A DNA stretch of 64,000 bases from Escherichia coli (GTDB lineage: Bacteria; Pseudomonadota; Gammaproteobacteria; Enterobacterales; Enterobacteriaceae). The notes under the pieces are model-generated. The model had not been told where the DNA came from and made no database searches. It saw only the letters and a list, made by a program, of their open reading frames with translations. Of this stretch, positions 1 through 19,025 are shown in pieces. The stretch is from NCBI RefSeq assembly GCF_051903065.1, contig NZ_CP178438.1, one strand, 5' to 3'. Position 1 is the first letter of the stretch, and every line of letters begins with the position of its first letter. The position numbers and the translations under genes are program-made.

Positions 1-98
1 GATGCCGAAAACCAGTGATTTTTCGTGTTGGTATCTGTGTTGGTATAAGATGATATTGTTTATTATTAACAATTTTAAATCATGAGGTTAAGTCACAT

Positions 99-122
99 GT
101 TCGAGTCCGGCCTTCGGCACCA
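99..122 (+). repeat. 24-bp copy of the 3' end of tRNA-Leu (leuX), likely island attachment-site direct repeat
   Basis: Sequence GTTCGAGTCCGGCCTTCGGCACCA matches the T-arm/acceptor 3' end of leuX as I recall it; the upstream bases do not continue into a tRNA body, so this is a partial copy, not a gene. Confidence 0.6.
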
Positions 123-302
123 CATCGTATGCAAATCGAGTCGCTCAAGGGCGGCTTTTTTTGTGTCTGGAATCCGTTAGTTACCTATCTTTCTCGCTAT
201 TTTAACTCTCTCAGAGCCAGCCAATTTCAACCCATCGCAAACGAAAAATGTTGGTACAGGCGTTGGTATTTTCGGTTCGACATTAATTTGTATTAGCTCA
301 GT

Positions 303-332
303 CCTGATCTGACAGCTATCTGCCAGATCAGG
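303..332 (-). terminator. Strong hairpin 15 nt downstream of hsdR stop (13-bp stem, one mismatch, 4-nt loop); possible terminator or RNA-stability element
   Basis: Inverted repeat CCTGATCTGACAG / CTGCCAGATCAGG read directly; no clear U-tract follows on the minus strand, so the terminator role is uncertain. Confidence 0.35.
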
Positions 333-346
333 TTCGGATTAATACA

Positions 347-3300
347 TTATATCTGCCCGCCTACACCTTTAAACTTCTCAATAAACGCGACGATCTTCTG
401 GAAAACCGTCTGTTTTTTCGTCTTATATTGCGGATTTAACGGACTGAGTTTTGGCAATGTCTCGTTTAATTCCGTGCCATTTTCGGTTGCGTATTCGCGT
501 TTTAAAGACGTGCGAATATAGCGTTTCGCCGCCTCTTCATTGAGATTTTCTTCTTTGATCAATGCTGCTGCTTCACGTTGCTGTTCGCGTTGAGCAAAGG
601 TAAAAAACGCGTCAATGATGCTGGCTTTATCCGGCAAATCATCCAGGTTCGTTTGCTGAATAAAATCGACCACCAATCCTTCTTTGGCACGGTTCCCAAG
701 GCTTGAACGAATTAAGCGTTTGACCTCTTCGGTCATTTCGCCCTTACCTTTGTTTTGTCTGTTGTGTTCGAAAATCAGTCCAAGGATATAATCCAGGTTT
801 ATTTCCTGAGACTTCAGCAAATCGACCTCAAAAACCACGTCATCCCAGTCGGTGGTTGATTTTTCTTTTTTGTCAGCTTCTTTCTCACGGCGCTGCCAGT
901 CACGAATATCGTTATAGGCTGAACGGTAATCCTGAATCTTGCGATCAGCAGGGAGACGAATCGTTTGTAATTCAGCGAACTTTTCATCATCCACATAATG
1001 TTCTGCTTTGAATTTTTCTACCGCAACAGGATCGCTAAGATCGATTTGTTGCAGGGCTTTCAGCATGGCAAATTCATCATAGTTTTGCAGGATGTTCTCG
1101 GCACGCAGGTATTCACCAAACAGTTTTACGAAGTCTTTCTTCTCTTTTTCACTTTCAATATTGGCAGGGTCAGGGAACCGTTGTTCCAGTTCTGAAACTA
1201 CTGCCATAAAGCCGCGTTTAGCTTCACCAGTGGCAGCATCAGTAAAGCCTTCCATATACTCTGCATAACTCTTTTCTAACACCACATTTTTGGTATTTTT
1301 ATCACCAAACAGCGTTATGGCATCAATGGTTGAGCGTTCCAGATCCCGGAAAGTGACGATGTTACCGAAGGTTTTAGTGGCGTTATAAATGCGGTTGGTG
1401 CGGGAAAATGCCTGCATCAGGCCGTGAAAACGCAAGTTTTTATCGACGAATAGCGTGTTCAATGTTGGAGCATCGAAGCCGGTTAAAAACATCCCCACGA
1501 CAATTAACAGATCGATATCTTGATTTTTAACCCGTTGGGCTAAATCACGATAGTAGTTCTGAAAACCGTTACTGTCGGTGCTGAAGTTAGTTTTAAAATA
1601 GCTGTTATACTCACGAATTGCAGCGTCAAGAAACTCTTTAGCACTGCTGTCCATTGCGCTGGTATCAAAAGTTTCATCGGAAATTTCACCAATGGCATTT
1701 TGCTCTTCATTGGCGGCAAAGGAGAAGATTGTCGCAACACGCAGCGGTTTATAAGTAGCCGATTTATTAGCTGCTTCCTCTTGTAACCGTTTAAACGTAG
1801 CGTAATAGGCTTTCGCGGCATCCACGCTACTCACTGCCAGCATGGCATTAAAGCCTTTGGAACTTGGGAAAGTACGGTGGGTCTTCTGGCGGAAGTTATT
1901 CAGAATATATTGCGTAATTTCCTGTATACGCATGGGATGAAGAAACGCCTGCTGATTTTCAGCCGCACTCAGTTTTTTCTCGTCGGTTTCTGTCTCTAAA
2001 GACTTAAACTGTGGCCGCACATCGTTGTAGTCCACCTTGAATTTGAGCACTTTTTCATCACGAATCGCATCGGTAATCACATATGAATGCAATTCACGAC
2101 CAAATACGCTGGCGGTCGTTTCTGAGCCTAAAGCGTTTTCCGGGAAAATAGGGGTACCGGTAAAACCAAACTGATAATAGCGTTTGAATTTCTTCTTCAG
2201 ATTTTTCTGCGCTTCTCCAAACTGGCTGCGGTGACATTCATCAAATATAAACACCACTTGCTGATTGTATACAGGCAGGTCGCTTTCTGCTTTCATCAGG
2301 TTATTAAGTTTCTGAATAGTGGTGACGATAATTTTGTTATCGTCCTTATCCAGATTTCGTTTAAGACCTGCTGTATTTTCCGAGCCGTTAACACTATCTG
2401 GCGAAAAACGCTGATATTCCTTCATGGTCTGGTAATCGAGGTCTTTCCTGTCGACCACAAAGAAGACTTTATCAATAAAGTCCAGTTCTGTTGCCAGACG
2501 TGCGGCTTTAAAGCTGGTCAGGGTTTTACCAGAACCGGTTGTGTGCCAGATAAAGCCACCGCTTTCGGGGGTAGACCAGTTTTTCGCTTTATAGGAGCTG
2601 TTGATTTTCCATAAGATACGCTCAGTGGCGGCAATCTGGTACGGTCGCATCACTAGTAGCGTTTGGCTAATATCGAACACGCTGTAGTTCACTAAGACAT
2701 TAAGCAGAGTATGTTTCTGGAAAAAGGTAGCGGTAAAGTCTTTGAGGTCTTTAATCAGCGTGTTGTCTGATTTCGCCCAATTCATGGTGAAATCAAAACT
2801 GTTTTTATCGCGCTTTGTGGTGTTGGCAAAATAACGGGTATCGGTGCCGTTAGAAATGACAAACAGTTGCAGATACTTAAACAGGGAATTTTCGCTGTTA
2901 AAACTCTCTTTACTGTAACGATGTATTTGGTTGAAAGCCTCACGAATCGCCACGCCGCGCTTTTTCAGTTCGATTTGTACCAGTGGTAAGCCATTAACCA
3001 GGATCGTGACGTCATAACGGTTAGCATGAGAACCCGCCTGTTCAAACTGCTGGATAATCTGCACCTTATTGCGCATGAGATTCTTTTTATCTATCAGATA
3101 GATATTTTCAAGACGCCCGTCATCAAAAATAAAGTCGCAGATATAGTCGATATGAATTTTACGGGTTTTATCCAGGATGCCATCGCTGGGGTTGTCCAGA
3201 TACTGCTCCGTGAAACGCCGCCACTCGCTGTCATTAAACACCACACCATTGAGGTTCTGAAGCTGTTCCCGAACATTGGACAGCATCGCCGACTGTGATT

Positions 3301-3584: not shown

Positions 3585-4865
3585 TTAGTTACTGATAGTT
3601 TCAGGTTTGGGAAAACTGAACAGTAAATCACGATAGTACTCGTATTGTTTCTGGCGCAACTCGATTTCACGCGGGAGGCCTTCGGTGATGGAGTTTGTCA
3701 GAGTGTCGAATTTATCGAGTATTGCGACGATACGAGCTTGTTCCTTAAGTGATTTTTCGTGATCTTTAGGATATGGAACCGGAATCATAATTTTTGAAAA
3801 ACCATTAATGAGTAGTGTATTAACTTTTGTTCTGGCTACATACTTTGCTTTTTCAGAAATAAACGAATCGGTTTGCATGTAATAGGAAATAAATTTTGGA
3901 TTCAAAGAATGTCGAAAAGCATAACAGTGATCATGAATAGCGATATCGTCATCCCCAAGCCATGCCACTGCTTTACCAACGTCTTCTACAGTCTCCCCCA
4001 CGTCAGTTATCACGACATCTCCATGTTTGGCATAGCGTAATGACGCTGCCATATCAGCTCTAACCTGTGATAACGAATGAGTTGTGTAAACACCATATCG
4101 TGTATATATCTCACCATAATGGATTACACTGATACCACCATCTTCTACATAATCTGCTTTAGTAAAACGTTTTCCACGAATAAACTCACCAATTTCCCCC
4201 AAAGTCTTCCACTCAACCTCACCCTCTTTAAAACTCAACAACTGGTCGCGATAGTAGTTGTACTGTTTTTTACGCATGGTAAGCTCTGCTGTAAGCTCTG
4301 CTGTAAGCTCAGTAAATTTATCCAGAATCCGAACGATTTCAGACTGGATGGCAAGGGATTTTTCCGGATTGCCCGGGCAGGGGATGGGGATGAGTAGTTT
4401 TGACATCAATGCATTTGAGCTTAGATTCGGCTGTGCTCCGCCCCCTGCAAGGATATAAATAGTCTCTGTATTTAACAATAAAAAATGGTATAAATAATTA
4501 TTGTTTAGAATATTTTCTTTGGGTATAAATTTCCCAACACGTTGGTTAAGATAACATTTTATTCCTTTTTTATAAATTCCCACTTTTCCTGTAGTGGCAC
4601 CTGACATTGCAATCAATATATTTCCCATAGATACCTCAAAGGAGGATAAATCTTCCTTGTAATCATTTAGTGAAAAGTATTTCACCTCATCTAAGTCAAC
4701 ATTAAACCCATCTATATTTGTGATTCTAACTATCGGTAACCCAGTTTCTTTAAATAAGCTGCTTTTAAATGCAAATCCATTTTTAAAATCACAAACATCC
4801 TTCAGGGTTTTCCACTCAACCTCAACCCCATCCAGCAATTTTTCCAGATAACTCAACTCGCTCAT
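3585..4865 (-). CDS. hsdS: Type I R-M specificity subunit (HsdS), type IC, 426 aa, with central TAEL repeat
   Basis: Conserved type IC central and C-terminal regions ([49 protein letters not shown]); start ATG overlaps the hsdM stop (ATGA), indicating translational coupling. Confidence 0.9.
4279..4311 (-). repeat. 12-bp tandem repeat in hsdS encoding (TAEL)2 plus a partial copy; spacer-length determinant of type IC HsdS
   Basis: Plus strand GTAAGCTCTGCT x2 then GTAAGCTCA; the minus strand reads ACT GAG CTT ACA GCA GAG CTT ACA GCA GAG CTT, i.e. [11 protein letters not shown]. Confidence 0.85.
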
Positions 4866-6416
4866 TTCTGCACCCCGCAGCCTTCAATTTCAGCCACAAT
4901 CGCATCAATATCTTTGCGCAACTGGTCGATTTTGCTGACCGTGGTTTTCAGCTCAGCATTCAGCTCACCGATATCGATAATTTCGCGAGTATCTTTCGCT
5001 TCAACATAGCTGCTCACCGACAGGTTATAGTCATTCGCTACAACGGCTTCAAACGCGACAGATTTCGCCAGATGAGCAACATCTTCCTTGCTGGCAAATA
5101 CCTGCATAATCTGTTCGATATGGGCATCGGTCAGGATATTGTTGTTGGTCTCTTTTTTGAACAGTTCGCTGGCGTCAATAAACTGAACTTTGGTATCGGT
5201 TTTATGTTTAGACAGCACCAGAATATTGACGGCAATAGTGGTGCCAAAGAACAGGTTCGGTGCCAGTGAAATCACGGTTTCGACATAGTTATTATCGACC
5301 AGATACTGACGGATTTTCTGCTCCGCGCCGCCACGGTAAAAAATACCCGGGAAGCAAACAATCGCAGCGCGACCTTTGGCCGAAAGATAGTTCAGCGCAT
5401 GTAGTACAAAGGCGAAGTCAGCTTTGGATTTGGGGGCCAGGACGCCAGCCGGGGCAAAACGTTCATCGTTAATCAGCGTCGGGTCATCGCTGCCAATCCA
5501 TTTCACCGAATACGGCGGGTTAGAAACGATGGCATCAAACGGTTTTTCATCTCTGAAGTGCGGCTCAGTCAGTGTATTGCCCAACTTGATATCAAACTTG
5601 TCGTAGTTGATGTTGTGCAAAAACATGTTCATACGCGCCAGGTTATAGGTCGTATGGTTGATCTCCTGACCAAAAAAGCCTTCTTCGATGATATGGTCAT
5701 CAAACTGCTTTTTCGCCTGCAACAACAGCGAACCGGAACCTGCGGCCGGGTCGTAGATTTTGTTAACGTGGGTCTGCCCGTGCATAGCCAGTTGTGCAAT
5801 CAGCTTAGAGACGTGCTGCGGTGTAAAGAACTCGCCGCCTGACTTACCAGCATTCGCGGCATAGTTAGAAATCAGGAACTCATAGGCATCGCCGAACAGG
5901 TCAATCTGATGTTCGTTAAAGTCGCCAAGCTTTAACCCTTCAACCCCTTTCAGAACCGCAGCCAGGCGGGCATTTTTATCCTTAACGGTGTTACCCAGGC
6001 GGTTACTGGTGGTATCGAAATCAGCAAACAAACCTTTGATGTCAGCTTCTGAAGGGTAACCGTAAGCAGAACTTTCGATAGCAACGAAGATGCTGTTTAA
6101 ATCTGCATTCAGTCTGTCATTGGTATTTGCTTTCGCAGCTACGTTGCAGAAAAGCTGACTTGGGTAGATGAAGTAGCCTTTGGTTTTGATGGCATCGTCT
6201 TTAATGTCATCAGTTATTACGCTGTCATCCAGTTTCGCATAACAGATACTGTCATCACCGGCTTCAATATAGCTGGAAAAATTTTCGCTGATAAAACGGT
6301 AGAAAAGCGCGCCCAGAACGTATTGCTTAAAGTCCCATCCATCGACCGAACCTCTGACATCGTTAGCAATTTGCCAGATCTGGCGATGAAGCTCCGCGCT
6401 GCTGAAGACTGGTCAT
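4862..6416 (-). pseudogene. hsdM: Type IC R-M methyltransferase subunit (HsdM) with an N-terminal frameshift (apparent 2-bp deletion in a CGCGCG run at about codon 8)
   Basis: ATG at 6416 with an AAGGA ribosome-binding site reads [17 protein letters not shown] then stop. The frame encoding the conserved body ([16 protein letters not shown]...) has an in-frame TGA at 6413-6415 and no ATG/GTG/TTG start until the TTG at 6031, which is why the ORF track shows only 389 aa. Confidence 0.7.
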
Positions 6417-6722
6417 TTTTTATCCTTTGAATGTGTTTTTAACGTCGGCTTTTGCCGGGATTTTACCGGAAGTTGTTTGGTTTTTCAGATTTGTATGACG
6501 GTGAGGAGGGGATTCAGTACCAGATTGTTAGTGCATCTTACTCAGCATTCACCGCTTGAGTCAGGAGGCTACTTTATATGCCCATCGCCCATCCGTAGGT
6601 GATCAGATAATTTATTGCGAGTCACCTTCCCGATTTTCAATCTCATTATTTACCCAATCTTTCACCAGTGGATAATTCGTCTGCTACTAACGGCGAGTGT
6701 ATTTTTTTACGGATGAAAGATT

Positions 6723-7556
6723 ATGCAAACAGAAGCTGAAGTCTTAACCGATCATAACGAACTAATTTGCTCGACCAGTATTGAGCGTATCGTCACAGGA
6801 CGTGATAGTGCACTGAACCAGATAGCGGCGTTAATCCAAAAGCTTGATGATATCTCCAGCCTGACATCCAGTATTGGCGGTGATGTGGCTGGAACCTGGG
6901 CAATGCGTAATGGATATGCCTTTGATTGCTGGCTGATGCAGCCAACCGACAAAGCGATGCCGGTGATCACCCGAAATATCGATCGCAGTATCTGGCGCGA
7001 TCTCATGCTGAAGTCCGGTATGTTGACTCTGATGGATGCCGAAGCTCGCAGTCAGTGGGCAAAGAATCTGGAGGAGGGCGATCTCCCGGCGATTAGCGAA
7101 GCCAACATCCTGAGTACCTTTGAACAACTTCACCACAATAAGCAGGATGTTTTCGAACGTGGGATTATCAATGTATTTAAGGGATTGAGCTGGGATTACA
7201 AAACCAATAATCCCTGTTATTTCGGTAAGAAGATTATCGTTAACAATCTGGTGAAGCATGACCGATGGGGCTACAGCCTGCACTGGGGCTGGCGGCGAGA
7301 TCAGCTTGCCGATCTGGAACGGATGTTCTATCTGCTGGATGGGAAGGTCATTCCCGATAACCGGCATGATGTTGCGATTCGGTTTATGGACTTCGTTAGT
7401 GCTCACCCGCATGAGCAGGTATTTAATGACGATTTATTTGTCATCCGCTATTACCAGAAAGGCAGTGGGCATATCACATTCAAGCGACTGGATCTGGTGG
7501 ATAAGATGAATGACATTGTGGCGAAGCACTATCCGTCAGCGTTATCAGCAAAATGA
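6723..7556 (+). CDS. Hypothetical protein, 277 aa, no catalytic motif recognised; divergently oriented from the hsd operon, upstream of the McrBC-like pair
   Basis: Clean ORF with ATG start and an AT-rich upstream region; I could not assign a family by eye. Confidence 0.6.
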   Translation: MQTEAEVLTDHNELICSTSIERIVTGRDSALNQIAALIQKLDDISSLTSSIGGDVAGTWAMRNGYAFDCWLMQPTDKAMPVITRNIDRSIWRDLMLKSGMLTLMDAEARSQWAKNLEEGDLPAISEANILSTFEQLHHNKQDVFERGIINVFKGLSWDYKTNNPCYFGKKIIVNNLVKHDRWGYSLHWGWRRDQLADLERMFYLLDGKVIPDNRHDVAIRFMDFVSAHPHEQVFNDDLFVIRYYQKGSGHITFKRLDLVDKMNDIVAKHYPSALSAK

Positions 7557-7914
7557 ATGTCGTATGTTTGCTGTCAATAATGTCGTTACTGGAACCCTCT
7601 GAATTTCGGCATATCCATTTACTGGAAACGATGTTTACCTAAAAACAGTTGATTCCCTATGCAACTAGAAACCTCACACAGGTTGAAAAACGAGTAGCGA
7701 TTTTACGTATGAAAGAATGCTATAGCCTTCTCTGAGAGCCATCAACATCATGCGTTTTGCAGTTAAGTCATCAGATAAATGTGGTGGCTCCAGGGCAGAA
7801 GGTAATTTCAGGATGAAAGTTATTTTTTTTATCACAAAATTTAACATTTTTGAGATTAATCCGATAAGATAAGGCTATCCCAATTTCCCTCCCCCCTACA
7901 TATTGGATTAAGAG

Positions 7915-9969
7915 ATGGTTCAGGATTCATCAGCATTAGCCCCCTTCTTTCGTGCTCAAATTGAAAAAAATAATCAATACAATTCAGTTTGGGGCAAACA
8001 CTACCGCCAGCTTGTAGAACAGATTCAGGCCGAAAAACCAAACTTTTCTGAAGCCACGATTCGGCAGGTATGGTATGAACGTGACAATGGTGTCTCCAGC
8101 CTGATGCAAGGAGGGATGTCATTGGTTGAATTTGAAAATGCACAAAAAGACCTTCTAACGCTCACCCGTCAGATAGCAGAAGAGTGTACACAAGAAAATT
8201 ATAATCGGGTCATTGAACGCCTTATCAAACTTAAAGCGGACGGAGTATTAAATAAGGTATATAGGGCTCTTTGTAATCGTGCTTTTGCAGCAATATACCC
8301 ATCAAAAATTAGCAGTGTCGTGAATGTTAATAATTTTTTTAGTTGCTACAATTATTGCAACAACCATTTCCAGCTAGGTCTTTCCGGAGAACGGGAGTGG
8401 CTGGCTCGCAATGTTGATCTTAAAGAAACGCTAAATCGTGCGCTGGGTGATGATATCGACCCTATTGAGCTGAATATGTCACTTTGGCATCTCTATGCGT
8501 ATGAAATTCAGGATAAAAATGCTATCGGTTTAGTTGGAAGCGAAAGTGCTTTACAAGAAAATGAGCAAGAAGATGATGTTATAAGTTCGCCATTGCCTAA
8601 AAACACAATTCTCTATGGCCCGCCAGGTACAGGTAAAACATATCGTACTATTGAGCTTGCTGTACAAATTTGTGATCCGATCGCTTACTCCCTGCAGGAG
8701 GGTAAGGATGAGAGTGAAAAACGTCGCGAGTTGAAAAAGATTTATGATCAGCTTATCAAAGAAAATCGAGTGCGTTTTATCACCTTTCATCAGAGCTTTG
8801 GTTATGAAGAGTTTATTGAAGGTTTAAGAGCTGAGACTACTGATGACGGTAATGTAAAATACGAAATAAAGGCAGGTATTTTTAAGCAGATATGCGAGGA
8901 TGCCGCCTTTGGTCATGCTGGTGCGCAGGAAATGTTAGATAGCGCACTTACTCGCCTACAAGAACGTTTATCTGAAGGTGAAAATATCACGCTGGAAACA
9001 CAACAGGGTAAGGCCTTCCAGCTGACGTATAAAAGTCAAACCAACTTTGGAATTTTCCCGTCACAATCGAAAAAAGAGGATTTAGGACAGGGTTACAATG
9101 CCTATTTGAAGGATATTCGGCAAGTTTATCAGGATCCACGAGCAAAAGTACATAATCCATCTTATGTACGCAGTATCCTTAACTATTTAATTAATCAACG
9201 TTATCTGCCTCTGAATACTCAGAGCGTAGCTTCAGAAAAAAAGGAAAACTATGTTCTCATTATTGATGAAATAAATCGGGGTAATATTTCAAAAATTTTC
9301 GGTGAACTAATTACCCTTATTGAGCCATCTAAACGGGCTGGTGAGCCAGAATCGCTTAGCGTATTGCTGCCATACTCTTCCACTCCATTTAGTGTGCCGA
9401 ATAACCTTTATTTAATTGGTACCATGAACACTGCTGATCATTCGCTTACTGCACTTGATACTGCACTACGTCGCAGATTTGATTTTGAAGCGATGCTGCC
9501 AGATATTACTGTTCTGAAAGATACTGTCATTAAAGGTATTGATCTGCCTCGTCTATTGCAGACGCTTAACGATCGCATCCAGGTTTTATACGATAGAGAA
9601 CATATGCTGGGGCATGCTTTTTTTATCCCTGTTGTGCAGGCAAAAGAAGACGAAGCTCTGGCATTTGAAAGATTCAAACGGATTATGCGAAATAAGATAC
9701 TACCATTGCTGGAAGAATATTTTTACAATGACTGGCAAAAAATTCGCATGGTACTGGCTGATAACCAAAAAGAGGAAGCACCAGATCTTCAATTTGTACG
9801 TGAGGTGAAATACCAGAAAAAGTATGCCGATCTCTTTGGTGATAACGGAACAGATGACTTGGGAACCAGTTTTCACCTGGCAGCAGAGGATGACAACGTT
9901 TGGGACAATCCAATCGCCTGGCAGCAAATTTATGCACCTCAAAAAGAAAAACGCAGGAGTGCGGAATGA
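7915..9969 (+). CDS. McrB-family AAA+ GTPase (type IV restriction-like), 684 aa, with a non-canonical N-terminal domain of about 230 aa
   Basis: Motifs ILYGPPGTGKTY, FHQSFGYEEFIEG, IIDEINRGNISKIFGEL and GTMNTADHSLTALDTALRRRF parallel the EcoKI McrB GTPase motifs; residues 1-230 do not resemble the EcoKI McrB N-terminal 5mC reader as I recall it. Confidence 0.8.
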   Translation: MVQDSSALAPFFRAQIEKNNQYNSVWGKHYRQLVEQIQAEKPNFSEATIRQVWYERDNGVSSLMQGGMSLVEFENAQKDLLTLTRQIAEECTQENYNRVIERLIKLKADGVLNKVYRALCNRAFAAIYPSKISSVVNVNNFFSCYNYCNNHFQLGLSGEREWLARNVDLKETLNRALGDDIDPIELNMSLWHLYAYEIQDKNAIGLVGSESALQENEQEDDVISSPLPKNTILYGPPGTGKTYRTIELAVQICDPIAYSLQEGKDESEKRRELKKIYDQLIKENRVRFITFHQSFGYEEFIEGLRAETTDDGNVKYEIKAGIFKQICEDAAFGHAGAQEMLDSALTRLQERLSEGENITLETQQGKAFQLTYKSQTNFGIFPSQSKKEDLGQGYNAYLKDIRQVYQDPRAKVHNPSYVRSILNYLINQRYLPLNTQSVASEKKENYVLIIDEINRGNISKIFGELITLIEPSKRAGEPESLSVLLPYSSTPFSVPNNLYLIGTMNTADHSLTALDTALRRRFDFEAMLPDITVLKDTVIKGIDLPRLLQTLNDRIQVLYDREHMLGHAFFIPVVQAKEDEALAFERFKRIMRNKILPLLEEYFYNDWQKIRMVLADNQKEEAPDLQFVREVKYQKKYADLFGDNGTDDLGTSFHLAAEDDNVWDNPIAWQQIYAPQKEKRRSAE

Positions 9970-11276
9970 AATCTTCCAGTCATTTCACTGTGTTCGAATA
10001 CGGGCATTTAGTGAGTGAGGAAGGTGATGCCCGTATAAATAATGCGGTAGTGCTACCTGCAGACCTATTTAAATGGCTTGAGCTGCGCTGTCTGAAAGAC
10101 GATGCTGATAATACTCATCGTTTGCTCACCCTTAGCAGCCGGAATGGAGTAAAAACGCTGCAGGTAAAAAACTATGCAGGAGTAATCTCACTGCCAGGGG
10201 GGCGATTTCTCGAAATCCTGCCTAAAACAGGTCAGGATAATGAGGATACTGTTCGTCAACAAATACTGATGATGTTACGTACGTTAAAATCATTTCGTCA
10301 TATTGCCTCCTCTGAATCTGGCGTCAAAATATCTAAAATGCCTCTGATGGACATCTTTATTCAACAATTTATAGAGAGCGTGCGTAAGATTGTGCAGAGA
10401 GGGTTAAAACGTGACTATTTACGTCAGGAAGATAATCTTCCATGGATAAAAGGAAGATTACGGATCTCTGCACAATTAAGCAAAAACTGTATTAGGCGGG
10501 ATCTTTTTCAGGTGGAGTATGACGAGTACAGCGTCAATCGTCTGGAAAACCGGATACTCAAAACTGCAATCAATAAGATTAGTCGCCAGACCAGTAATCC
10601 ACAATTATTACAGCAGATAACACAGCTGCAGTTTCACTTTGAAAATATCACGTCAGTTCATGATGCTTATATAGCTTTCGAGCAGTTACACTTTGATAGA
10701 CACATGCATCACTATGAGCAAGCATTAGCGTGGGCGAAGATGATTTTATTGGGCGATTCTCCACACTGTATGTATGGGGATGTTAATGCTTTTTCACTGC
10801 TTTTCCCGATGGAGGCTGTTTTTGAATCTTTTGTGACGACATGGATGCGTTATCGTTATTATGATAAATGGCGAGTGGACGCACAGGTAAGTTCAAAAAA
10901 TCTGATTAGTTATAACGGTAAAGCTTTATTTAAGCTGCGGCCTGATATTTGTTTACGGCCTCGTAAAAGTACTACTGGTTCAGTTATTACCTGTGATATT
11001 AAATGGAAGATAGTAAATGGCAGAAAGGACAGTCTTGAACAATCTCAAGCCGATCTCTACCAAATGCTTGCCTATGGATTGAATTACCAGGAGGGGGAAG
11101 GTGATATGATTTTGATATACCCCTATCATAACGGATTTAATCAGCCATCTCCTCATCCTTATGAATTTAGCCATCAGAAGGAAAATAGGTTACGTTTATG
11201 GGTTGTACCTTTCTTTATTGGCGAGAGTTTACAGACATCAGAGTTGCATTTTCCTAGTGGGGCTGAATTTATTTAG
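9966..11276 (+). CDS. McrC-like PD-(D/E)xK nuclease partner, about 436 aa, translationally coupled to the McrB-like gene
   Basis: ATG overlaps the McrB-like stop (ATGA at 9966-9969); C-terminal PDICLRP...ITCDIKWK fits a PD..D-x-K nuclease motif. The ORF-track start at 9900 lies inside the upstream gene and is probably too far 5'. Confidence 0.75.
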   Translation: MKSSSHFTVFEYGHLVSEEGDARINNAVVLPADLFKWLELRCLKDDADNTHRLLTLSSRNGVKTLQVKNYAGVISLPGGRFLEILPKTGQDNEDTVRQQILMMLRTLKSFRHIASSESGVKISKMPLMDIFIQQFIESVRKIVQRGLKRDYLRQEDNLPWIKGRLRISAQLSKNCIRRDLFQVEYDEYSVNRLENRILKTAINKISRQTSNPQLLQQITQLQFHFENITSVHDAYIAFEQLHFDRHMHHYEQALAWAKMILLGDSPHCMYGDVNAFSLLFPMEAVFESFVTTWMRYRYYDKWRVDAQVSSKNLISYNGKALFKLRPDICLRPRKSTTGSVITCDIKWKIVNGRKDSLEQSQADLYQMLAYGLNYQEGEGDMILIYPYHNGFNQPSPHPYEFSHQKENRLRLWVVPFFIGESLQTSELHFPSGAEFI

Positions 11277-11338
11277 TATTTGTAGGCTATCTCTTTATAC
11301 AATTTATTTGTCTATTTGTATGCACAAGATAGCCTACC

Positions 11339-12211
11339 TCACCCCCTAAAAACCTCTTTCCGATGCCACTCCACAAACCCCTCAAAAGGGTAATTTTTAC
11401 GCACCTGTGGCAACGCAATAGTTTTCCCGTCAAAATCCCAGAATAATCTCTCAACGATCCCTCCGCCGTTTACCGCATCCGAGACCAGTATCCGCATATT
11501 TTCATCCAGGCCAATCGATCCTTTATCAAAGGCTTTATGGTGTATTGCGCAAAGTGCCAGACCATTGGGGATTTCACAAGGGCCGCCGTGCTGTTTCCAT
11601 TTTATATGCGCCGCTTCCAGCGCGACGGTGGTGTCGTCGTGGCGCATATTAAAGCCACATATCGCGCACTGGTATTTATAAGCGCGTAATACATTTTTGC
11701 GAAATAACGGGTCGCGCTGTTTACGGATTTGCTGGAGATCAAAACCCAGCTCGTCAGCAATTTCTTCCTGAATACTCTCGGTGAAGTGCGCTTCGAGTAT
11801 CTGTTGCGCCAGAGTATTGATGAGTTTTTTATTGCCGGTTACCAGGGCGTAGTGCTGTTCATCGAAACCGCCTGCAACGTGGTATTCGTTCAGTTCCTTC
11901 ACTGGCGGTTGTCGGCTGCTCCCTGCTGTTGAGCAACGCTCGGCATTGTGTAATTGCCAGAATCCGTCGCCTTGTAATCGCCAGAACGGCATATCAGGTC
12001 GGTACTGTGAACGCTGTGGCCCAAAACGTTCCAGTAAACTGTGCAGAGGTTCGTAGATTTCCGAGCCATAATCGAAAAGGCGCGGATGTCCATGCAGGTA
12101 TCCCGCTAATACGTATAGCAATAACAATGGCTTATGCGGCGCGCGCTGTTCACCCTTATGCCAGATTTTTATATTGGCAATTGCCTGCTGTAGCGATTTA
12201 CTGGAAGCCAT
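11339..12211 (-). CDS. HNH-family nuclease (C-terminal CAICG...HIKW...CAIHH motif) with an uncharacterised N-terminal domain; candidate modification-dependent restriction enzyme
   Basis: Cys/His HNH motifs in the C-terminal third; start chosen at ATG 12211 (AGGGA ribosome-binding site, protein begins MASSKSL); the ORF track extends to a TTG at 12268. Confidence 0.65.
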   Translation of the reverse strand: MASSKSLQQAIANIKIWHKGEQRAPHKPLLLLYVLAGYLHGHPRLFDYGSEIYEPLHSLLERFGPQRSQYRPDMPFWRLQGDGFWQLHNAERCSTAGSSRQPPVKELNEYHVAGGFDEQHYALVTGNKKLINTLAQQILEAHFTESIQEEIADELGFDLQQIRKQRDPLFRKNVLRAYKYQCAICGFNMRHDDTTVALEAAHIKWKQHGGPCEIPNGLALCAIHHKAFDKGSIGLDENMRILVSDAVNGGGIVERLFWDFDGKTIALPQVRKNYPFEGFVEWHRKEVFRG

Positions 12212-12347
12212 TGATATCCCTGGCAGTGAAATAATTGCGATCATGCTCGCAAATTTTCTGCTGTTCAAGCCTGCAAGTGAAGATATATTACTTTGATCTC
12301 ATTTGTTTTTTTGCTGCTTGTTCTGAGAACGTATAAGGACATTCTCT

Positions 12348-13986: not shown

Positions 13987-14049
13987 ATAATTTTCGCGTA
14001 ATTGAAATGATAAATTGATAGCAGGGCCCTTTACTGGGGCCCTGAAGCG

Positions 14050-15156
14050 TTAGTTTTGTACTGTAACTTTATTATCCTTCACAGAGATCAAAACTGAATC
14101 CGTCACCGCTTTGCCGCCTGCAGATTCACCGCCAATAATCAATAGACTATTATTCCAGGGCAATGATACTCCGTAGGCCCGACCTTGCGATAATTCACCA
14201 GATTTATCCCATTTCCCGTTATGCCAAAGATGAATATCAGTGCTATATGATTTTTTCAGGCCTTCATGCGCATAGTTCTTACCGTTCTGGTAATTTTCTC
14301 GTGAACCTTTGAATCCGGCCCCTCCGGCAAATATAAGAGAATCATTGCTTATCCCCGCAAAACCGCCAGCGACGCCATCTGGTGATGAGACGGGAGCAAG
14401 CTTATTCCATTTTAAATTATTACCGGTGAAATCAAGTTCAAATACGGCATCCGTTCGCAATCCGGGTTTGGCTTCGCCATTAATAAGCCAGGTTTTATCA
14501 CCTTTATTCACAACCGCCGCACCAGCCGTTCCGTACCAGGGAGATTCGCCAGCGTAACTCCATTGCTGTGTTGAGGGATCAAAAGACAACAGAAACTTAT
14601 TGAAGAAATAATCTTCTGCTTTTTTGTCAAAATAATGGGCATTGATCTTGTCTATAGTTGCTGAATCTTTTCCAGCCTCGTTGAGATCTTCAAAATAGCC
14701 ATTGAAGATATTCTGGTTAACACCGCCAGTAACATAAGCCTTGCCGTTGTGTACAAAAGTCACATGACCCGCCATGCCCATCGGTGCATGCGACATCAAT
14801 TTAACCCAGCTATTGGTTTTGGGGTTGTATTTGTGTACGTCATTAAATACCTGAGTCAAGCCCTTGCTATTTTTGCCAATGCCGCCAAACACATACAGAT
14901 TGCCATCAATAAATGCAGAGGTTGCTTGATCTCTTGGTCCGCCAGGGAATGCAGCTAACGCTGTCCATTTTTTATCTTTGGCCTGTGTATCCAGCTTGTA
15001 CCATGCCGTACCTGCGCTACCTAAACCAATGTAGACAGTGTCGTTATCAATTGCTCCGGTACCACTTTTAAATGGCACAGGAGTTTCCGGTAATACAGAC
15101 GCGTTTGCGGCAAATGAAGCCATCATGATAGCAAGCGCCGTTATTGTTTTATTCAT
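14050..15156 (-). CDS. nanM: N-acetylneuraminate mutarotase NanM (YjhT), Kelch-repeat periplasmic protein, 368 aa
   Basis: Signal peptide MNKTITALAIMMASFAANA and Kelch-like repeats; start set at the internal ATG to give the 368-aa K-12 length. Confidence 0.85.
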   Translation of the reverse strand: MNKTITALAIMMASFAANASVLPETPVPFKSGTGAIDNDTVYIGLGSAGTAWYKLDTQAKDKKWTALAAFPGGPRDQATSAFIDGNLYVFGGIGKNSKGLTQVFNDVHKYNPKTNSWVKLMSHAPMGMAGHVTFVHNGKAYVTGGVNQNIFNGYFEDLNEAGKDSATIDKINAHYFDKKAEDYFFNKFLLSFDPSTQQWSYAGESPWYGTAGAAVVNKGDKTWLINGEAKPGLRTDAVFELDFTGNNLKWNKLAPVSSPDGVAGGFAGISNDSLIFAGGAGFKGSRENYQNGKNYAHEGLKKSYSTDIHLWHNGKWDKSGELSQGRAYGVSLPWNNSLLIIGGESAGGKAVTDSVLISVKDNKVTVQN

Positions 15157-18428: not shown

Positions 18429-19025
18429 GTGAGTAAACGTCGTTATCTTACCGGTAAAGAAGTTCAGGCCATGATGCAGGCGGTTTGTTACGGGGCAACG
18501 GGAGCCAGAGATTATTGTCTTATTCTGTTGGCATATCGGCATGGGATGCGTATTAGTGAACTGCTTGATCTGCATTATCAGGATCTTGACCTTAATGAAG
18601 GTCGAATAAATATTCGCCGACTGAAGAACGGATTTTCTACCGTTCACCCGTTACGTTTTGATGAGCGTGAAGCTGTGGAACGCTGGACCCTGGAACGTGC
18701 TAACTGGAAAGGCGCTGATCGGACCGACGCCATATTTATTTCTCGCCGCGGGAGTCGGCTTTCTCGCCAGCAGGCCTATCGCATTATTCGTGATGCCGGT
18801 ATTGAAGCTGGAACCGTAACGCAGACTCATCCTCATATGTTAAGGCATGCTTGCGGTTATGAACTGGCGGAGCGTGGTGCCGATACCCGTTTAATTCAGG
18901 ATTATCTCGGGCATCGAAATATTCGCCATACTGTGCGTTATACCGCCAGTAATGCTGCTCGTTTTGCCGGATTATGGGAAAGAAATAATCTCATAAACGA
19001 AAAATTAAAAAGAGAAGAGGTTTGA
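18429..19025 (+). CDS. fimE: Type 1 fimbriae recombinase FimE, 198 aa (GTG start)
   Basis: MSKRRYLTGKEVQAMMQAV... matches K-12 FimE. Confidence 0.95.
   Translation: MSKRRYLTGKEVQAMMQAVCYGATGARDYCLILLAYRHGMRISELLDLHYQDLDLNEGRINIRRLKNGFSTVHPLRFDEREAVERWTLERANWKGADRTDAIFISRRGSRLSRQQAYRIIRDAGIEAGTVTQTHPHMLRHACGYELAERGADTRLIQDYLGHRNIRHTVRYTASNAARFAGLWERNNLINEKLKREEV

Follow-up and report, generated by a model that had tools for sequence, protein, structure and literature searches.

Two of the gene families enriched in plasmid leading regions carry the label "Uncharacterized; DUF4942; Methyltransferase" (Samuel et al., 2024, Supplementary Table 1): family 24, with 2,171 members (false discovery rate (FDR) p 0), a median position of 1 from the origin of transfer (oriT), and T-strand orientation; and family 76, with 551 members (p 2.1e-100). 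A 2025 paper describes transcription starts mapped at ssi1-3 and reports induction of the operons that follow them in newly formed transconjugants (PMC12672017). The literature searched holds no functional study of DUF4942, only passing mentions, and the name ydiA was met only in a supplement. Considered here is a chromosomal member of the DUF4942/YdiA family at positions 6723 to 7556 of the window, which is the whole 64,000-nt stretch of Escherichia coli contig NZ_CP178438.1 (assembly GCF_051903065.1) that was analyzed. As an object the gene is already known, being a catalogued member of its family; its surroundings, between a type I restriction operon (hsd) and an mcrBC pair, invite questions about its role. 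The reading favored here, at a probability of about 0.55, is that it is an establishment gene of mobile elements, stranded at this site and part of neither the hsd nor the mcrBC system.

The DUF4942 Gene and Its Protein

The gene is defined by its open reading frame (ORF) and translation, with an ATG start and a TGA stop at 7554-7556:
6723..7556, + strand: coding sequence of the DUF4942/YdiA family, 277 residues

An earlier note on this DNA, made from the letters alone, had placed a 277-residue ORF here, between the type I hsd operon and mcrBC and divergent from hsdM, and this arrangement is confirmed. The same note called the protein an orphan with no recognizable motif, and neither description survives. 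A helical N-terminal segment (residues ~1-82) is followed by a core (residues 83-271) that matches positions 1-189 of the 190 in the Pfam model DUF4942 (PF13708) at E 1.4e-68 and score 230.7, a full-length family match. An all-against-all HMMER search returned 2,123 representative homologs at E<=1e-3, most of them stand-alone proteins of 260-290 residues that align end to end, and a word-indexed search found more than 2,500 clusters across Enterobacterales, every one labeled DUF4942. The E. coli chromosome NZ_AP045789.1 carries DNA that is 100% identical, and RefSeq names its product DUF4942 domain-containing protein (WP_047624340.1). Matches in PHROGs are to two families of unknown function and to the N-terminal half of a 548-residue "DNA methyltransferase" family; NCBIfam gives no match to the protein, and PADLOC has no model for it, its type I models included.

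The gene is genuine and under purifying selection, since the ratio of nonsynonymous to synonymous substitution rates (dN/dS) is 0.06-0.18 among six E. coli copies, all six with an intact 277-codon frame, and an intact near-homolog is present in 432 of 5,426 complete E. coli genomes. One part of the gene stands out in a 150-bp identity profile and in the protein alignment of the window protein with plasmid YdiA (alignment A3):
7366..7515, + strand: mosaic, hyper-divergent patch within the gene (residues ~215-265)

The patch is only 79% identical to strain SCU-118 although the flanking mcrB is 99-100% identical, and across strains with flanking DNA 97-100% identical to the window its identity is only 79-82%. 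It falls in the part of the family alignment that varies most and is prone to insertions, and the mosaic pattern suggests gene conversion from other alleles.

Across a diverse alignment of 115 sequences, D197 is invariant and ~24 positions are at least 90% conserved; the conserved residues include S156-W157, K160, N162, R200, H250, and N263, as well as the LSWDYKTN and PEPDHR blocks. The isoelectric point (pI) is 6.05 for the window protein and 9.0 for its C-terminal half, and the family median is 7.65. An AlphaFold2 (AF2) model of the window protein reaches a predicted local distance difference test (pLDDT) score of 90.7 and a predicted template modeling (pTM) score of 0.82. Of the checks that the earlier note had proposed, sensitive homology search by hidden Markov model returns DUF4942, while fold search with the AF2 model, like sequence search of the PDB, returns no solved structural relative; on the model, the fold appears to be new. 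Neither a catalytic motif of any known superfamily nor a cofactor-binding signature was found in Pfam, NCBIfam, PDB sequence, and fold searches.

DUF4942 Genes on Conjugative Plasmids

A tblastn search found a homolog in 4,291 of 72,556 plasmids, ~6% of all PLSDB plasmids, and 3,963 of these are conjugative; identity is 36-40% over 96% coverage. Matches to IncL/M, IncI/K, and IncF plasmids have E values of 1e-46 to 1e-53 at 37-40% identity and 96% coverage. In alignment A3, the window protein and plasmid YdiA align over their full length and share the same C-terminal end. Related loci were retrieved with this close-set alignment, and the plasmid and phage loci so obtained are biased toward close relatives.

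The plasmid copies occupy a consistent place. On pOXA-48-like IncL/M and on IncFII/U plasmids the DUF4942 gene is located within the leading region and faces oriT-mobA-traI; a JAB/RadC gene, Hha, DUF1380, an antirestriction (KlcA/ArdB-type) gene, and ssb share its orientation. On IncI-gamma/K1 plasmids and pESBL-EA11 it is the last forward gene ahead of oriT (in pESBL, gene 68947-69795 and oriT 70354-70436) and hence the leading-region gene that reaches a recipient first. More distant relatives, from metagenomes and other plasmids, adjoin SSB, TrwB, ArdC-N, SprT, ArdA, PsiA, MqsRA, and an AcrVA2-like gene; one distant relative lies in a tailed-phage genome.

The single-stranded DNA (ssDNA) promoter Frpo1/ssi1 of ColIb-P9, taken from Supplementary file 4 of Samuel et al. 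(2024), has a 99.4% match by blastn in pESBL and in an IncK plasmid, ending 50 bp upstream of the DUF4942 start codon:
18570-18898 of locus L016 (68569-68897 of pESBL-EA11): Frpo1/ssi1 match directly upstream of ydiA/Hp22
8575-8903 of locus L007: Frpo1/ssi1 match directly upstream of ydiA/Hp22

As ssDNA this stretch has a predicted fold of -94.7 kcal/mol (z -6.75). In pESBL and the IncK plasmid, ydiA/Hp22 is apparently the sole forward gene of the first transcription unit beside oriT; Frpo2 lies ahead of Hp16, and Frpo3 ahead of ssb.

The window copy is placed otherwise. Searches by blastn with ColIb-P9 Frpo1-3 and with F ssiD gave no hit in the window, so the Frpo/ssi feature of YdiA-type genes is missing there, and the annotated neighborhood of the window copy, a chromosomal leuX island and not a leading region, contains no relaxase or oriT genes.

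Methyltransferase Fusions

In phages of Pseudomonas, Aeromonas, Marinomonas, and others, DUF4942 forms the N-terminal part of proteins of ~540 residues that end in a small methyltransferase, and the same architecture occurs in proteins of 460-534 residues within the representative set. The methyltransferase has motif I (VLEPSAGxG) followed by motif IV (NPPF/NPPY), the gamma-class order of the N6-adenine type, and no recognition domain of its own. Its matches to the Pfam models MTS and N6_Mtase are weak; it also matches methyltransferase modules that form part of phage proteins of 2,000-3,900 residues.

The window protein is not itself an N6-adenine (gamma-class) methyltransferase, as the motifs and the Rossmann fold are absent. 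M.EcoGIX was considered as the separated partner of YdiA, a Rosetta-stone idea, and was rejected because it is a beta-class enzyme with no real similarity to the gamma-class fusion domain. The label "Lar family restriction alleviation" on homologs from phages MR13 and MR15 was not used, since the record has other implausible annotations; the "Lar" protein is the same DUF4942-methyltransferase fusion as that of phage phiPSA1.

Island Context of the Chromosomal Copies

The window belongs to the island at leuX (tRNA-Leu), which has ahr/yjgR on one side and nanC/fim on the other. Among close relatives (62-95% identity), the DUF4942 gene is the terminal gene of a backbone resembling that of the CP4 islands, in the order GTPase (YeeP)-WYL-DUF932-(DUF905-KlcA)-RadC-YeeU-CbtA. 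Of 19 close IMG/VR loci, 14 have the gene directly after radC-yeeU-cbtA and on their strand, as do strain G749 and locus L010. In L010 the full CP4-like arrangement occupies the leuX locus, as the window does, and AbiEi/AbiEii, HNH, and nanS come next. DUF905/YkfF and KlcA of this backbone are also among the top leading-region plasmid families (Samuel et al., 2024). In the IMG/VR loci L029 and L036 the integrase of a neighboring island begins 0.5-2 kb after DUF4942, which makes it the outermost backbone gene; this position at the island end mirrors the oriT-proximal position on plasmids.

The record behind L010 deserves a separate remark. NZ_AP023207.1 is deposited as the 93.8-kb "plasmid" pMTY18781-2, is typed as non-mobilizable, and carries the chromosomal genes nanS-nanM-nanC-fimB-fimE beside a complete CP4-like island. 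Either a piece of chromosome was mis-assigned in this record, or a large region was excised or captured.

A blastn comparison of the window with L010 and L004 leaves a single stretch in common with the canonical CP4-like context:
6703..7586, + strand: gene cassette, 884 bp

It extends 20 bp beyond the ATG on the left and 30 bp past the stop codon on the right, and in other E. coli genomes partial matches end at these two points as well. A 14-nt motif, TTTACGGATGAAAG, stands at the left edge (6706-6719) and recurs at 7702-7715 and 7806-7819 upstream of mcrB with 86-93% identity; the recurrence could quite possibly be due to chance. Upstream of 6703 the window has hsdM in the place of radC-yeeU-cbtA. 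Because the position after CbtA is found in 14 of the 19 close relatives and in L010 at the same locus, the window copy is a derived, stranded state in which every other backbone gene has been lost and hsdRSM has taken their place.

Both flanks of the cassette vary between strains. An hsdM flank on the left is combined with McrBC on the right in the window and in E2348/69; truncated hsdM is combined with McrBC in SCU-118 and with AbiE in strain 4114; intact hsdRSM is combined with AbiE in L023; and CbtA is combined with AbiE in L010 and with RelE in G749. Among complete E. coli genomes, 432 have the gene, ~300 the hsdM-side junction, and ~226 the McrB junction. The left flank (hsd or CbtA) and the right flank (McrBC, AbiE, or RelE) assort independently, and the gene is a conserved anchor with recombination hot spots at both edges. 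To its right lies a stretch whose content is exchanged:
7587..12067, no strand assigned: exchangeable slot of defense cargo, occupied here by mcrB, mcrC, and the greater part of a phosphorothioate-type HNH restriction gene, and by AbiEi/AbiEii in other strains

Homology between the window and both L005 and L010 resumes only at 12068. What fills the slot elsewhere was read from the annotations of E2348/69, strain 4114, L010, L022, and L023.

The Neighboring Restriction Genes

The other features of the region, assigned by PADLOC on the hsd side and from RefSeq names on 97-100% identical DNA for the mcr genes, are as follows:
99..122, + strand: copy of the leuX 3' end, an att-type repeat, from comparison of window 1..360 with 13990..14350 of locus L001
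347..3463, - strand: hsdR (REase_I)
3585..4865, - strand: hsdS (Specificity_I)
4862..6416, - strand: hsdM (MTase_I), frameshifted
6417..6722, no strand assigned: divergent intergenic region between hsdM and the DUF4942 gene, 306 bp
7915..9969, + strand: mcrB, 684 residues, intact
9966..11276, + strand: mcrC
11339..12268, - strand: phosphorothioate-type HNH restriction gene (RefSeq annotation), followed by a further HNH gene

The repeat at 99..122 marks the hsd-DUF4942-mcrBC block as a leuX-proximal remnant island, with foreign DNA to its left, and looks like the right-hand att repeat of another leuX island to the left of the window, the islands standing in tandem. ARAGORN finds no complete tRNA at the left end of the window, and bases 1-98 are unrelated to tRNA.

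In this strain the neighboring type I system is probably crippled. Compared with the intact gene of E2348/69, hsdM has a 2-bp deletion in the GCGCGC run at ~6400 (6395-6416), in codon 7, and an identical stretch is flagged as "frameshifted" in RefSeq. The longest remaining hsdM ORF is 4862..6031, and the methylase cannot be made from its normal start. The deletion may simply inactivate the gene, or it may be the work of an on/off switch based on a short repeat. In HsdS the central region (residues ~186-196) holds two copies of the repeat TAEL, and the near-identical strain 23CRST027 has three, a 12-bp difference. Such repeats presumably place this HsdS in the type IC (EcoR124) group, in which a change in spacer length alters the sequence recognized, as between EcoR124I and EcoR124II.

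The intergenic region holds one sigma-70-like match (6649..6676, TTTACC-16-GATAAT), and a promoter and terminator scan gave matches no more numerous than in shuffled sequences. No Frpo-type ssDNA promoter and no Rfam family were found in 6417..6722, and Rfam and repeat searches of 6300..8000 gave nothing meaningful. On the other side, the McrB/McrC pair of the window is not recognized by the PADLOC type IV models, with only a weak match of the AAA region to REase_II models. In strain 23CRST027, whose DNA is 100% identical to the window over 6000-8000, mcrB is split by IS903B.

A Proposed Role and Its Alternatives

The favored reading, that DUF4942/YdiA is an establishment gene of mobile elements, would work as follows. 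As a backbone gene it would be expressed, or meant to be expressed, when the DNA of an element enters a new cell. Its product would be an establishment factor, probably of the counter-restriction type, that acts on the incoming DNA or on the machinery attacking it. With a basic C-terminal alpha/beta half (pI 9) and many invariant aromatic and charged residues, the protein may be a nucleic acid-directed module. The fused form would present incoming DNA to the adenine methyltransferase; the stand-alone form would bind to incoming DNA or mark it, or would associate in trans with a methyltransferase or restriction complex. This specific DNA-targeting mechanism is put forward tentatively, as less likely than not. 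It is a speculative step further, and a doubtful one, to propose that these proteins form a new class of counter-defense or establishment protein with a fold outside the PDB, that they are the first Frpo1 product upon entry of I-complex plasmids, and that chromosomal copies are still acting, for example by alleviating or redirecting restriction or methylation in trans.

An anti-restriction regulator had been one of the options in the earlier note. The option itself fits the anti-restriction and establishment genes with which the family keeps company (ArdA, KlcA/ArdB, ArdC-N/SprT, SSB, and PsiA/B) and its methyltransferase fusions; the fit comes from mobile-element ancestry, and the location between two restriction systems, from which the note had argued, does not contribute to it.

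Several points weigh against an establishment role. No experiment assigns the DUF4942 family any activity. Most members stand alone, with no methyltransferase of the fusion type nearby, and the link to methylation depends on a minority of fusions. In transposon sequencing the pESBL homolog Hp22 (O3K_25947) was given a score of 1.00, "non-essential", both for plasmid maintenance and for transfer to a K-12 recipient (PMC4288162); M.EcoGIX was likewise scored "non-essential" there, its role having appeared solely in restricting recipients (PMC4288162). The induced genes named in the accessible portion of the early-expression paper do not include a DUF4942 gene (PMC12672017). The window copy, with no Frpo promoter, oriT, or relaxase nearby, is not in a plasmid-entry scenario. 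Because of the mosaic patch, the low dN/dS carries a caveat as a sign of selection in situ: in stranded copies it could derive partly from gene conversion by mobile copies. Finally, the strong conservation of polar and aromatic residues would also fit an enzyme.

That last point leads to the alternative that fares best, though it is an unlikely one: a new-fold enzyme that acts on DNA, nucleotides, or a host protein during establishment, in which case the fusions would join consecutive steps and not serve DNA targeting. The invariant D197 and the ~24 highly conserved positions make a pattern unlike that of variable recognition domains, and no structural relative was found to suggest a mere scaffold. 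The searches for catalytic motifs and cofactor signatures described above were negative, however, and the conservation pattern is the sole basis of the proposal.

The gene might instead have no function and be a relic: the N-terminal half of a methyltransferase gene, left by a split or truncation and merely hitch-hiking in the island. Some databases do name relatives "restriction methylase (fragment)", and the island is decayed, with no integrase, a frameshifted hsdM, and insertion sequence (IS) elements in sister strains. A relic is nonetheless improbable: the six copies are all intact and show the low dN/dS given above, the stand-alone form of ~260-290 residues is dominant among the ~2,100 representatives, and the window protein aligns with plasmid YdiA over its full length and shares its C-terminal end.

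The suggestion of the earlier note that the gene serves one of the flanking systems, type IC or McrBC, as an accessory finds no support. Such a factor could be a controller, or a restriction-alleviation protein that tempers the two systems; it would account for the divergent position beside hsdM, for the junctions shared by ~300 genomes (hsdM side) and ~226 genomes (McrB side), and for purifying selection on a gene that has lost its island backbone. But conserved co-occurrence, the evidence that the note had looked to, is not what the genomes show. On the hsd side, CbtA can stand in place of hsd, and the gene persists where hsdM is frameshifted or truncated by IS66 or IS5; on the mcrBC side, AbiEi/AbiEii or CopG/RelE take the place of McrBC downstream of otherwise 88-95% identical genes, and the McrB junction is found in only ~226 of 432 genomes. 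Every combination of flanks is seen, homology breakpoints hug the gene at 20 bp and 30 bp, thousands of plasmid and phage homologs have no hsd or mcrBC neighbor, and PADLOC has no model for the protein, so an accessory role at this locus is very improbable.

Least probable of all is that the gene serves the CbtA/YeeU (CbeA) toxin-antitoxin pair as a third partner or modulator, or acts as a general addiction or stability factor of CP4-like islands, and is orphaned here: the gene does follow yeeU-cbtA on the same strand at a gap of ~100 bp in the 14 of 19 close relatives, G749, and L010, and one plasmid relative lies near MqsRA, but plasmid and phage homologs have no CbtA or YeeU neighbor, the gene is intact in hundreds of genomes that lack the pair, and the fusion partners are methyltransferases, not toxins.

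Comparison with Known Systems

For the window, the outcome favoring a stranded establishment gene is mainly a correction: the place of the gene between restriction systems is an accident of island decay and cassette exchange, and no three-part system need be supposed. For the family, DUF4942/YdiA is among the commonest uncharacterized genes of conjugative plasmids and typically the first to enter the recipient; an ssDNA promoter, anti-restriction neighbors, and methyltransferase fusions make it a well-defined target for studying the establishment of resistance plasmids.

YdiA of IncL/M and IncI/K plasmids belongs to the same Pfam family as the window protein and is homologous to it over the full length at 36-40% identity, with the shared blocks LSWDYKTNNPC, DDLxRxFYxLDG..PDxR, and KGxxHIxFKR..LVxKxN. 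The window copy differs in being chromosomal, without oriT, relaxase, or Frpo, and in belonging to an island subfamily that normally follows CbtA.

ArdA, ArdB/KlcA, ArdC, and M.EcoGIX share the plasmid niche and orientation of DUF4942 genes, as their direct neighbors, and the pESBL homolog resembles M.EcoGIX in being dispensable for transfer into a permissive K-12 recipient. The DUF4942 protein has no similarity to any of these in sequence or fold. An acidic DNA mimic of the ArdA/Ocr kind (pI ~4) was considered and rejected on the pI values of the window protein and the family (6.05; median 7.65) and on the lack of a fold or Pfam match.

The fusions of phages and conjugative elements, such as the 543-residue "DNA restriction methylase" of Pseudomonas phage phiPSA1 (phrog_6263), have an N-terminal DUF4942 module homologous to the window protein at 24-40% identity. 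The window protein ends where their linker starts and has neither the S-adenosylmethionine (SAM)-binding motif I nor the NPPF/NPPY motif IV.

Also close are the backbones of the CP4-44, CP4-57, and CP4-6 type (YeeP GTPase, DUF932, KlcA-like, RadC-like YeeS, YeeU/CbeA, and CbtA), in which relatives of 62-95% identity form the terminal gene, also at leuX. Compared with these, the window retains only the cassette at 6703..7586, with hsdRSM replacing the rest. The locus is an example of a conserved mobile-element gene that forms the fixed edge of an exchangeable slot for defense genes.

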